This document shows positions 23,483 to 29,574 of a stretch of 64,000 nucleotides of DNA, piece by piece. The notes beneath the pieces were generated by a model, which saw nothing but the letters and a program-made list of their open reading frames with translations, was not told where the DNA came from and ran no database searches. Position 1 is the first letter of the stretch, and each line of letters starts with the position of its first letter. The DNA is from Heterodontus francisci (lineage: Eukaryota), in contig NW_027142063.1 of assembly GCF_036365525.1 (NCBI RefSeq), forward strand, positions 2,170,001-2,234,000, read 5' to 3'. Both the position numbers and the translations under genes were made by a program.

Positions 23483-24023
23483 GTTGTGTTTGGGATGTTA
23501 TTCAGTCCATTGTGCAGTTTTACTTGGAGCTGGTGTACTTGGTCACCGCCTTTGTCCCTTCCGACACGGCGTGCTTGGCCAGCTCCCCGGGCAGCAGCAG
23601 GCGCACGGCGGTCTGGATCTCCCGGGAGCTGATGGTTTTGCGCTTGTTGCAATGGGCCAGGCGGGAAGCCTCACCCGCGATGCGCCCGAAAATATCGTTC
23701 ACAAACGAGTTCATGATGCTCATGGCCTTGGAGGAGATGCCGGTGTCGGGGTGAACCTGCTTTTTTTTTCCAAAATATACTTTATTCATAAAAATCTGTC
23801 AAAATTACTTTGCCAAACAGTTTCCAAACAGAAACAAAAAATTCAAACATTGCAAGGGACATCAGTTTCCTTCAATACTGTCATGAGTTTCTTCCCAACC
23901 CTTCCGTTTCACAATTGTCATGTCAATTACAGTTTTACATTTACAGCAATTGAGAATATTAACGATACAGTTCGAGGGGTTTCCCATGGACCCAGCCCCT
24001 CAGTCCAGCTTGGTGGGGGAACC

Positions 24024-27000
24024 TTACACTGTGGTCTTTCCCCATTGAGCCTTTGCTGCGGCTGCACCAAGCTTTAGTGCGTCCCTCAGCACGTAGTCCT
24101 GGACCTTGGAATGTGCCAGTCTGCCACATTCGGTGGTGGACAACTCTTTGCGCTGGAAGACCAGCAAGTTTCGGGCAGACCAAAGGGCGTCATTCACCGA
24201 ATTGATAGTCCTCCAGCAGCGGTTGATGTTTGTCTCGGTGTGCGTCCCTGGGAACAGCCCGTAGAGCACAGACTCCTGTGTTACAGAGCTGCTTGGGATG
24301 AACCTTGACAAAAACCACTGCATCTCTTTCCACACCTGCTTTGCAAAGGCCCATTGCAGGAGGAGGTGTGCGACTGTAACTTCCCCACCACAGCCAACGC
24401 GGGGGCACTGTGTGGAGGGGGCGAGACATTGGGTGTGCAGGAAGGATCTGACGGGGAGGGCCATTCTCACCACCAGCCAAGCTACGTCTTGTTTGAAAGT
24501 TTTGGTGATGAGGCTTTCTGCCAAATGACTTTGACGGTCTGCTCGGGGAACCATCCGACAGGATCCACCGTTTCCTTTTCCCGTATGGCCTTGAGGACAT
24601 TCCGTGCAGACCACTGCCTGATGGACCGGTGGTCAAAGGTGTTTTCCCGCAGAAACTGCTCCACGAAGGATAGGTGGTACGGCACCGCCCAACTGCATGG
24701 AGCGTTCCGCGGCAATGTGACCAGGCCCATCCTTCGCAACACCGGGGACAGATAGAACCTCAGCACGTAGTGACACTTGGAGTTTGCGTACTGGGGATCT
24801 ACACACAGCTTGATGCAGCCGCACACGAAGGTGGTCATCAGGATGAGGGCCACGTTGGGTACATTTTCCCGCCCTTGTGCAGAGATTTGAACATCGTGTC
24901 CCTCCGGACCCGGTCCATTTTACATCCCCAGACGAAGCGGAAAATGGCTCGGGTGACTGCCACGGCGCAGGAGTGGGGTATGGGCCAGACCTGCGCCACG
25001 TAGAGCTACAACGTGAGCGCCTCGCACCTGATGACAAGGTTCTTACCCACAATGGAGAGAGATCGCTGCCCCCACATACCCAACTTTTGTCGGACCTTGG
25101 CTACTCGCTCCTCCCATGTTTTGGTGCACGCACCGGCCCTTCCGAACCATATCCCCAGCACCTTCAGGTAATCTGACCTGACGGTGAAGGGGACAAAGGA
25201 TCGGTCAGCCCAGTTGCCAAAGAACATGGCCTCGCTCTTGCCGTGGTTGACTTTGGCTCCCGAGGCCAGTTCGAACTGGTCGCAGATGCTCATCAGTTTG
25301 CGCACGGACAGCGGATCCGAGCAGAAAACGGCAACGTCATCCATGTACAGGGAGGTTTTGACCTGAGTGCCTCCGCAGCCTGGGATTGGCACCCCTCTTA
25401 TGCTCGCATCCTTCCTAATAGACTCAGCAAAGGGTTCAATACAGCAAACACACAAGACCGGGGACAGAGGGCAGCCCTGTCTAACTCCAGATTTGATCGG
25501 GAAACTTTCCGATTCCCACCCGTTGATTGAGACTGCGCTACTGATGTTTGTGTAGAGCAGTTGGATCCAATTGCAGATTCTCTCCCCAAACCCCATTTTG
25601 GAAAGCACGTCCATCATGTAGATGTGCGATATCCTGTCAAAAGCCTTCTCCTGTTCCAGGCTGATGAGGCAGGTGTCCACCCTCCTGTCCTGTACGTAGG
25701 CGATCGTATCCCTGAGTAGCGCGAGACTATCAGAGATCTTCCTGCCGGGTACAGTACAGGTCTGATCGGGTTGAATCACCAACTCCAGAGCAGACTTGAC
25801 TCGACTGGCTATGACTTTGGACAGAATCTTGTAATCAACATTAAGCAGTGAGATGGGCCGCCAATTTCTGATTTCTACCCTCTCCCCCTTCTGCTTGTAA
25901 ATGAGGGTGATGATGCCTTTTCTCATGGACTCTGACATGCTGCCGGTCAGGAGCATACTCTCGTATACTTCCAGCAGGTCCGGGCCGACCCAGTCCCACA
26001 GGGCCGAGTACAACTCGACCGGTAAGCCGTCGCTCCCGGGAGTTTTTCTCGTCTCGAAAGACTCGACGGCCTTTGTCAGCTCGTCCTGAGTTAGCGGCTT
26101 GTCCAGTCTCTCCCTCCTGCTGTCATCTAAGACATCTGTGATGGATGACAGGAAGGACTGGGAGGCTCTGCTGTCTGTGGGCTTCGCGTCATACAGCCCA
26201 GCATGAAAGGATTTGCTGATCCTTAGTATGTCGGACTGCGAAGACGTTACCGAGCCATCTTCTTCCTTCAGGCTGCTGATAACAGAGCTCTCTCCGTGTA
26301 CCTTTTGGAAGAAGTAACGCGAGCACGTCTCGTCCTGCTCGATGGAGCGGACTCTGGACCGGAAGAGGATCTTGGAGGCCTCCTTGGCAAAGAGCGAGGC
26401 CTGCTGGCTCTTCACCTCTTGGAGGTCCTCCTTGACCTCGACCCCCATTGATTGCAACCGGAGTAGATTTTGCATAATTTTCTGGAGTCGGGACAGTTCC
26501 CGCTGTCTCTCTCTCGCCTTCTGAACACCTTTGTGGATGAAGAACCTCTTGATGTTCTCCTTAATTGCTTCCCACCAGTGAACTGGAGACTCAAAGAGGG
26601 GTTTCACGGTCCTCCAACCTTTGTAATCCCTTTTGAGTTCCTCAACGTTCTCTGGCGTCAGCAGTGTCGCATTGCGCTTCCACGGCCCTCTGCCAACCCG
26701 CTGGTCGTCCTGTAAGTGACAGTCGGCCAGTAAGAGGCAGTGGTCGGAGAAGAACACCGGCTTGACGTCGGTGGATCCGACCGTGACAGCACGGGACACA
26801 AAGAGGAAGTCAATCCTGGAACGGGCAGACCCGTCCGATCTTGACCATGTGTATCTGCGCTGCGCTCCGTCTGCAGGTTTGCTGAAGACGTCGTGCAGTT
26901 TGGCATCTTTAACTGTTTCTATTAGGAATCTGGACGTAGCGTCCAGTTTGCTGTCGTCACTGCCGGATCGTCCAGCCGCATCGATGATGCAGTTGAAGTC

Positions 27001-27423
27001 ACCGCCTCGGATGACCGGCCTGGACGTCGCCAGCAGCATTGGGAGCTGCTGGAAGACGGTCAGCCGCTCGCTGCGTTGTACCGAGGCGTACACGTTGATC
27101 AAACGGAGTGGAGCGTTGTTGTACATCACGTCTGCTACGAGGAGGCAGCCGCCCACCACCTCCTTAACTTCGGAGATGGTGAAGTTACCTCCCCGCAGCA
27201 GAATACCCAGGCCGGAGGAACGACAGTCATTACCCCCCGACCAGATCGATGGCCCGTGGGACCACCATCGCGACCACTGCCTGTAGGTGCTGAGGTGTGG
27301 TATTCCACACTCCTGCAGAAACAGTAGGTCAGCTTTGACCTTGGCAAGGAAATCCAAGGTTGAAACACATCGCGTAGTAGATTTAATGCTACGCACATTA
27401 ATGGAAGCAATTCTTACACACAG
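24024..27423 (-). pseudogene. Tx1 ORF2 (APE endonuclease, reverse transcriptase, Cys-rich C-terminus), disrupted
   Basis: SINVRS, LFLQE, GDFN, RIDF, SDH; WRPISLLNVDYKI, QGCPLSP, YMDD. Lesions: no in-frame ATG (CTG at 27423), LEQEKAFD in place of LDxxKAFD, premature TAG at 25006-25008, frameshifts near 24870 and 24490. Confidence 0.92.
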
Positions 27424-27436
27424 ATTTTACTAAAAA

Positions 27437-28957: not shown

Positions 28958-29020
28958 TTTACTCAAAGCTTGCCCAGGATCAAAAGGCAATGATCATGGT
29001 CTCTTCTCAATCAAAGAAGC

Positions 29021-29063
29021 ACTGATAAGAACAGATACTACACTTGATCTGAGCCAAAAGGCC
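29021..29063 (-). ncRNA. RNU2: U2 snRNA fragment (nt 11-53) forming the 5' head of the Tx1 element
   Basis: GGCCTTTTGGCTCAGATCAAGTGTAGTATCTGTTCTTATCAGT matches recalled vertebrate U2 nt 11-53 at 42/43 positions and includes the branch-point recognition sequence GTAGTA. Fragment only, not a gene. Confidence 0.93.
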
Positions 29064-29574
29064 ATGAACCTGCTTCATCACTTTGCAGACGTAGATGGAG
29101 TAACTCTCCTTCCTCGACTTTCTCCGCCTCTTGCCGCCCTTTGCTGACGGTTTACTCACAGTTTTCTTGGCGCCCTTCTTAGCAGCTGCTTTCTTCTTCT
29201 CCTCAACCATCTTCAGATTCAATTTCAGACACAGAAATAAAGCAAATCCCTTCTGAGTGCGGATCAAATAGACAATCCAACAGCTCTATGCTAATGAGGG
29301 ATGGGGGAAAGCAAAGATTGTGATTGGGTGATTGGGAGTGATGTCACAATGGGTTCATATTGCAATACTATAATTTGGGACCGCAATTGTTGACAACGCG
29401 ATCGGTAGGTGGCGCTGTTTTGGCACATGCGCAAATACAGCATGTGCCACGAAAACGTCACAGCTTGCGACTGAAGCAGCTGCCAGGACTAAAGATGGCG
29501 CTGCTCAAAGAATCACAGAGATGAAACCTGACAAACACGTGGCAGAATACAATGGCAGGAGTGAGAGAGTGGAG

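Follow-up and report, generated by a model that had tools for sequence, protein, structure and literature searches.

A U2-headed Tx1 retrotransposon within a Heterodontus francisci histone H2B gene, and its probable launch from U2 genes in a family that also enters histone gene starts

We analyzed a stretch of 64,000 nucleotides (nt) from Heterodontus francisci (NCBI RefSeq assembly GCF_036365525.1, contig NW_027142063.1, positions 2,170,001 to 2,234,000 of the forward strand), hereafter the window, in which a histone H2B gene is interrupted by a long interspersed element (LINE) of the Tx1 clade headed by a piece of U2 small nuclear RNA (snRNA). Read on the minus strand, the order is H2B nt 1-146, U2 nt 10/11-53, a 63-nt leader, open reading frames 1 and 2 (ORF1 and ORF2), a 3' untranslated region (UTR), an A-tail, and H2B nt 136-378. 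The individual parts, in window positions, are:

29065-29210, minus strand: H2B coding nt 1-146 (5' half); a TATA-like box lies about 60 nt before the ATG
29065-29075, minus strand: target-site duplication, 5' copy, 11 bp, AAGCAGGTTCA
29021-29064, minus strand: U2 snRNA head, nt 10/11-53, with a single substitution at nt 23 (nt 11-53 = 29063-29021)
28958-29020, minus strand: leader of 63 nt, including a putative 14-nt relic of U1 nt 19-32 at 29004-28991
27437-28957, minus strand: ORF1, with two RNA-binding domains and CCHC knuckles (domains read on the intact copy L095); two compensating frameshifts in the window copy
24024-27423, minus strand: ORF2, with APE endonuclease, reverse transcriptase and zf-RVT; start codon lost, stop at 25008-25006, then frameshifts
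23763-24023, minus strand: 3' UTR, with AATAAA at 23786-23781 and the A-tail at 23769-23763
23752-23762, minus strand: target-site duplication, 3' copy, 11 bp, AAGCAGGTTCA
23443-23762, minus strand: H2B coding nt 136-378 (23762-23520) and histone stem-loop (23487-23443)

The 3' half of the interrupted gene (nt 136-378) is 97-98% identical to an intact H2B gene at 22265-22642. U2 nt 11-53, at 29063-29021, is enclosed by the target-site duplication and followed by the 63-nt leader, and Rfam matches U2 at 29073-28965 with 49 bits (cut-off 46, E 1e-06). An earlier note, made from the letters of the window, had described a full-length Tx1 element with a U2 head inside an H2B gene, the head lying within the duplication; the H2B halves, the 11-bp duplication and the Rfam match bear this out. 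"Full-length" holds for the length of the copy and fails for its integrity: both frames are damaged, with frameshifts near 27967, 27598, 24867 and 24491, the ORF2 start codon gone, and a stop at 25008-25006. Compared with the intact copy L095, the window copy carries 156 substitutions and 5 indels (96.8% identical, or about 3% decayed). At the 5' junction, the single T at 29064 probably derives from U2 nt 10 through CpG decay, and where the target copy ends there appears to be a 3-nt microhomology with U2 nt 6-8. The leader contains a 14-nt exact match to U1 nt 19-32 (29004-28991), which none of 2000 shuffles reached and which is perhaps the relic of an earlier head. A U2-like relic in the leader was considered and rejected, as it spans 8 nt and was equaled in 245 of 2000 shuffles (not significant). 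The interrupted H2B gene (23435-29375) and the intact one (21979-22727) form an inverted, facing pair about 700 bp apart, a layout that recurs at many H2B loci. The window insertion by itself is ordinary; the family behind it is not.

Intact L095 encodes an ORF1 of 508 amino acids (two RNA-binding domains and CCHC knuckles) and an ORF2 of 1,135 amino acids (APE endonuclease, reverse transcriptase (RT) and zf-RVT; Pfam). The endonuclease is of the APE type (PF03372, E 3.9e-15) and not restriction-like. The CCHC motif in ORF1, APE and RT in ORF2, an A-tail and a target duplication are all as in the Tx1 clade, and a zebrafish protein named TX1 (149 kDa) is 41% identical. The closest named proteins are amphibian (49-50%), followed by those of lancelet and teleosts. 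Five of 80 metagenome loci had snRNA flanks, and the two nearest by RT (48%) were L257 and L258, the latter with U2 nt 1-26 upstream, U2 nt 38 onward downstream, and U2 nt 27-37 lost. An RT tree built with FastTree (86 rows, segments with fewer than 250 aligned residues excluded, no named Keno sequence included) placed the window element, L257, L258 and three teleost proteins in a 14-row clade with a support of 0.999, and all five snRNA-flanked loci grouped with the element in one 30-row clade (0.87). Because the U2-flanked L257 and L258 share the element's clade, U2 targeting is old in this lineage. Another, distant Tx1 relative (L260; OFEP01001224.1, 72-211 and 6096-6142) is preceded by an intact U2 gene and has a tail that enters U1 at about nt 3; it is a possible U1-targeting relative.

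The U2 head was found throughout the family in the 6.0 Gb of genome searched. A query made of the head and the ORF1 start gave 1,582 candidates, and among the 40 scored all 39 other copies were headed, a count that the query biases toward heads. A leader-only anchor found 881 matches in the genome, and the head-leader junction 969. Within the range covered by both of these lists lay 66 leader sites, 65 of which carry the head (52 matching the head pattern and 13 headed with extra mismatches; the remaining one is truncated inside the leader, and the 14 without a pattern match were inspected one by one). The junction from U2 to leader is identical in 65 of these 66 copies, which rules out a one-off snRNA-LINE template-switch chimera with a unique head and a variable junction.

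Young copies occupy U2 genes themselves. The U2 genes on contig C41 form a tandem array with a 577-bp unit, and seven of the 39 close copies lie within array units (contigs C41 and C734) with the upstream spacer first, then U2 nt 1-53, the element and its A-tail, and finally U2 nt 38 onward, which in one of the seven is replaced by the head of a second element. U2 nt 38-53 (16 bp) is duplicated around the array copies, and the DNA upstream of the insertions is that of intact array units; proximal and distal sequence elements were not identified in this upstream DNA. Both frames are open in all seven, versus about 11 of the 32 remaining close copies, and the seven are 99.0-99.96% identical to L095. 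A second, spaced type of U2 gene with another upstream region occurs at C41:21.6-22.0 Mb. Among the 46 copies outside the array, heads reach U2 nt 1-18 in 44, and a search for the array's upstream spacer before the heads of these 46 found nothing beyond a partial 11-nt likeness. Heads thus end hard at U2 +1, as expected of RNA initiated by the U2 promoter.

These loci have the form that the earlier note had predicted for a source copy in a U2 gene (promoter, U2 nt 1-53, element, poly(A), U2 nt 38 onward), and the 16-bp duplication of nt 38-53 agrees with its explanation of the head's end at nt 53 by a nick near 37/38 and a duplication of about 15 bp. The outcome it had named as fatal, that no other copy would be headed and none would lie in a U2 gene, did not occur, given heads in 65 of 66 copies and seven copies in the array. 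Its proposal of transcription from the U2 promoter is well supported by the array structure and by heads that stop at or near U2 +1 with no promoter DNA before them, and we regard it as very probable that the source copies are launched in this way. Part of ORF1 occurs in 14 of 17 listed sequencing runs, one of them recorded as RNA (share 0.12); this was not counted as transcript evidence.

Several composite loci bear on how copies arise, and some hint that promoters other than that of U2 may launch them too. In L122 (contig C6), the U2 head is preceded by H3 +3 to +53, identical to the H3 family of contig C45. This stretch has the length expected from a source inserted at the histone hot spot described below, and would fit that origin, with a template jump as the alternative. 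L247 has two A-tails with H2A nt 1-41 between them, consistent with read-through from a parent embedded in H2A. At two dispersed loci (L253 and L254-L256; G000:C1:24969071 and C1:210204470), an element and its A-tail are followed by U2 nt 38-56 and then by a different, 5'-truncated element. Read-through across neighboring tandem copies in the U2 array, mobilized as a single unit, would account for these loci. Many full-length copies stand head-to-tail with another copy (for example L092, L100, L106, L117, L118, L233, L236, L241 and L242), which suggests that earlier insertions or their sites are re-used.

We then considered where the 3' ends of the family lie. An A-tail followed by U2 nt 38-type sequence was found 371 times genome-wide (control 0), a count that includes insertions into the heads of other copies. 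Among the first 100 of these junctions listed, 82 are on C41, and by eye about 68 fall at nt 38/39, 21 at nt 36, seven at nt 33 and three at nt 27-31, with one unclear. Element 3' ends in total number 5,244 on the forward strand and about 10,500 on both, the reverse count being inflated by overlapping matches. Keno elements insert 37 nt into U2 genes according to the available text of PMC6136364 and PMC4640811, and the tail-U2 junctions lie at this same distance. Strict Keno-like specificity for U2 is ruled out by the share of 3' ends found there (371 of about 10,500), and so few U2 ends point to the Keno lineage with relaxed targeting. Named Keno proteins were absent among the 120 listed homologs and 8 clusters, and the family is best filed as a Keno-type Tx1 LINE.

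Histone genes provide a second hot spot. Exact histone stem-loops number 3,339 genome-wide, in large, duplicated arrays with many decayed genes (contigs C21, C28, C35, C45, C334, C712, C1395, C1806 and others) and with a separate H3 family on C45. Our sample started from the first 100 listed stem-loops. It comprised 30 loci together with 40 of the 49 regions obtained by merging, 338,805 bases in all with some overlap, and held 84 distinct stem-loop contexts and 133 histone tblastn matches. Sixteen element 3' ends occurred in it: 13 directly border, in the sense orientation, the opening bases of a histone coding sequence, and three lie at one LINE-remnant site. Separated by 5' truncation point and tail, the histone cases represent six independent events (H2B nt 7 and 10; H2A nt 2, 2 and 7; H4 nt 3), two of the H2A events being nested in one gene. 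All six in-gene events in the sample are sense and within the first ~13 coding bases; none was found deeper within any histone coding sequence, in a histone 5' UTR or upstream promoter, or at an internal ATG or A-G/T site. The chance of six start events is (15/400)^6 = 2.8e-9, and the genome-wide expectation is 0.044. Five further start events were found at H4 nt 1 (in the window), H2B nt 11-13, H2A nt 3 (two events) and H3 nt 1-3 (six loci, counted once), for a total of 11, all sense, that cover H2A, H2B, H3 and H4. A tree built from the final 300 nt groups the H3 event and two H2B events with the young array copies, the others being older (82-91% identical); start events as a whole span subfamilies 82-98% identical to the young master over this segment. 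The histone-start hot spot is long-lived and not tied to one subfamily. Genome-wide, 498 junctions of tail with H4 or H2A were found, with few tail types among the first 100 listed, and they are therefore mostly copies of few events.

The suggestion that progeny land in histone genes thus holds for the family, at first codons, and not for the site in the window: H2B nt 136 was rejected as a recurrent site, since the window locus alone spans it among 40 scored of 1,338 candidate H2B loci. None of the 39 close full-length copies lies within a histone gene, and with events spread over the tree a histone-specific family of one lineage and one site was also rejected. Nor is a target switch in progress supported, because the youngest copies still enter U2, the histone events span subfamilies, and most copies are in neither target; histone starts are instead a long-standing second hot spot. 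U1 is entered as well, in a gene with an upstream octamer that carries tandem insertions and a duplication of U1 nt 38-51. Of the dispersed sites, 28 were examined and 18 kept (rows from the array, from U1 and from duplicates had been removed beforehand, and a few rows are roughly placed); these 18 showed no target motif beyond A then G/T.

What these hot spots appear to share is distance. The TATA-to-ATG distance is 65 nt in H4, 66 in H2A, 61 in H2B and 66 in H3, and the 11 histone-start junctions lie 65-73 nt from the start of the TATA box, or at about +33 to +41 from start sites that we inferred from TATA spacing and a histone cap motif. U2 junctions are mostly at +33 to +39 and the U1 junction is at +38, and the site sequences in H2A, H2B, H3, H4, U1 and U2 are unrelated. 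The H2B ATG is 4-5 nt nearer to the TATA box, and the three H2B start events are displaced to nt 7-13. This suggests that position on an active gene guides insertion in part, alongside sequence.

Taken together, the explanation we favor, with reasonable though limited confidence, is a U2-launched, relaxed Keno-type Tx1 LINE whose hot spots are shared by position. The element would probably have no promoter of its own. Young intact copies at nt 38 in the U2 array stand behind U2 nt 1-53, and their RNA would be started at +1 by the U2 promoter. Most daughters reach unrelated sites, and a subset lands in sense at U2 nt 31-39, U1 nt 38 or histone coding nt 1-13. There the integration complex may be attracted to, or let in at, the downstream border of an initiating or paused RNA polymerase II (Pol II) complex on very active snRNA and histone genes, a step toward which we lean slightly. 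A copy landing at a hot spot would gain the host gene's promoter and a new head of ~50 nt; the window copy is an older daughter that landed elsewhere. The odds are about even for the broadest form of this proposal, that a Tx1 LINE senses Pol II geometry at initiation or during pausing, inserting in sense ~35-40 bp past snRNA and replication-dependent histone starts of any sequence, taking their promoters and acquiring successive ~50-nt U2, U1 and histone heads. The available text of PMC4349240 describes Integrator and DSIF-dependent pause machinery shared by snRNA and replication-dependent histone genes, and a contact between this machinery and the element is speculation.

Several observations weigh against this explanation. 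The U2 launch is read from DNA structure, copy counts and junctions, and the +33 to +41 placement depends on the inferred start sites. Distance from TATA is told apart from nearness to the ATG by three H2B events only, a small number. Five of the 11 start events came from searches that targeted gene starts or were biased in their favor, and L248, L249, H3 and H2B-c are known from the 3' junction only. U2-adjoining 3' ends make up ~3.5% of the total (371/~10,500), with ~96% elsewhere and most of them dispersed, and the 3'-end pattern counts older subfamilies too. The window copy itself lies off the hot spot, at H2B nt 136 or ~+164. An H3-embedded source for L122 was not found among 40 scored of 75 candidates. 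Finally, L198/L224 (C28:60.03 and 63.03 Mb) and L199 (C28:60.08 Mb) are truncated differently at their 5' ends yet sit at one and the same base of a LINE remnant, next to a decayed H2B end; this non-promoter site was struck twice, apparently independently, which points to sequence hot spots as well.

That doubly struck site is one reason to consider a U2-launched Keno whose endonuclease reads sequence or shape loosely. On this view, histone starts and U1 nt 38 are struck for the likeness of their naked DNA to the U2 site, or to an A-run with TG after it, and not for their place on an active gene. A loose, pyrimidine-rich core can be seen by eye at the U2, U1, H2B nt 136 and LINE-remnant sites, the H2A, H3 and H4 events occur at A-TG, and crocodilian Utopia elements retain a weakened U2-like preference (available text of PMC4640811). 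However, dispersed sites hold almost no sequence information, the H2B events lie 6-12 nt off the ATG in purine-rich sequence unlike U2, and internal ATG or A-G/T sites went unused in the histone sample. We consider this reading unlikely.

Passive accessibility combined with amplification is less probable still. Nucleosome-free starts of active germline genes would lie open to a sloppy endonuclease, and arrays would multiply a few events. Amplification of this kind is seen, in that the 498 junctions with H4 or H2A and the 40 H4 loci of the window type are mostly duplicates. Yet after such duplicates are collapsed, 11 events remain within a ~9-nt window, all sense, and the 5' UTR and upstream promoter regions have no events in the sample. 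A further reading, in which an element with its own promoter acquires heads because its RT repeatedly jumps to short 5' fragments of U2, U1 or histone RNA, much like U6-L1 chimeras, is very improbable. In its favor, Kojima preferred template switching for SINEU heads (available text of PMC4494074), the L122 H3 head lacks a matching source locus, and L253 and L254 fuse U2 ending at nt 56 to truncated copies. Against it, the U2-leader junction is constant in all headed copies and is identical to the target duplication found around array copies, and L253 and L254 also fit read-through of tandem array insertions.

The window contains other members of the family and unrelated features:

51627-53553, minus strand: older, 5'-truncated relative at an H4 start codon, with a 13-14 bp duplication and a nested repeat resembling a short interspersed element (53225-52874)
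51314-51625, minus strand: H4 coding sequence, separated from its own promoter by this insertion
57971-58543, minus strand: third, older Tx1 3' fragment at a site that is not histone

The window-type H4 insertion was present in 40 of 40 scored loci and thus has at least 40 genomic duplicates. Because tail, nested repeat and collinear flanks are common to all 30 loci examined of these 40, they represent one event duplicated with the array, and the insertion was rejected as proof of site-specific H4 targeting. The window also holds a transfer RNA-like sequence with a TAA anticodon (63404-63486, minus strand; Rfam 41.6 bits) and a 549-amino-acid open RT-like frame from another LINE type (41525-43174, minus strand).

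Candidate source loci for snRNA-headed retroposons are now identified, in the form of U2-array and U1 copies with intact frames, which bears on the transcription question raised in the available text of PMC4494074. If the shared +33 to +41 position is true, Tx1 target choice involves more than sequence reading by the endonuclease and offers a route to new multicopy targets; if the geometry reading is true, it would offer a general way for SINEU-type heads to arise and to be transcribed, the latter so far unexplained. Histone gene counts are affected as well, as hundreds of array copies are interrupted at their start (498 H4/H2A junctions beside 3,339 exact stem-loops).

Other retrotransposons also use transcribed genes in this manner. 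Dictyostelium TRE and yeast Ty3 and Tf1 insert at a set distance from a transcribed gene, and SLACS relies on a host promoter. R2 is co-transcribed with its host gene (as cited in the available text of PMC4494074). All five resemble the present element in their set distance, their position just inside a transcribed gene, or their host promoter, and differ from it in using Pol III genes, upstream promoters or ribosomal DNA. Utopia has the U2 site of this element, and its reptile families duplicate 20 bp with weakened specificity, but it belongs to another clade and has a restriction-like endonuclease (available text of PMC4640811). The crocodilian Tx1-Mar and SINEU system includes Keno-related Tx1 with U1 or U2 heads (Tx1-2_Crp, Tx1-11_Crp) and has layered U1/U2 heads (PMC4494074, available text). 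It shares the snRNA 5' head with this family, and its layering compares with the U1 relic in our leader and a U1-on-U2 locus (L092). Tx1-Mar targets Mariner-N4, whereas the sources here sit behind real U2 and U1 upstream regions; the available text of PMC4494074 left head transcription open, attributed the heads to template switching, and does not contain the word "histone". Keno itself, a U2-specific member of the Tx1 clade (Kojima and Fujiwara 2004, as cited in the available text of PMC6136364, PMC4640811 and PMC4494074), is thus already published, as are the relaxed targeting of U2 by Utopia and the crocodilian Tx1 and SINEU with U1 or U2 heads. Our literature search turned up no account of Tx1 insertion at histone starts; Repbase, subscription journals and supplements fell outside it, and an entry there is possible. 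To our knowledge, no APE-type LINE has been reported to insert immediately after the Pol II start sites of snRNA as well as histone genes. Like this element, Keno combines an APE endonuclease with an RT and has its 3' junction at U2 nt 38/39. Compared with L258, which loses U2 nt 27-37, this element duplicates 16 bp. It differs from Keno in that ~96% of its 3' ends lie away from U2, in having hundreds of dispersed copies with a U2 head, and in a second hot spot at histone and U1 starts.

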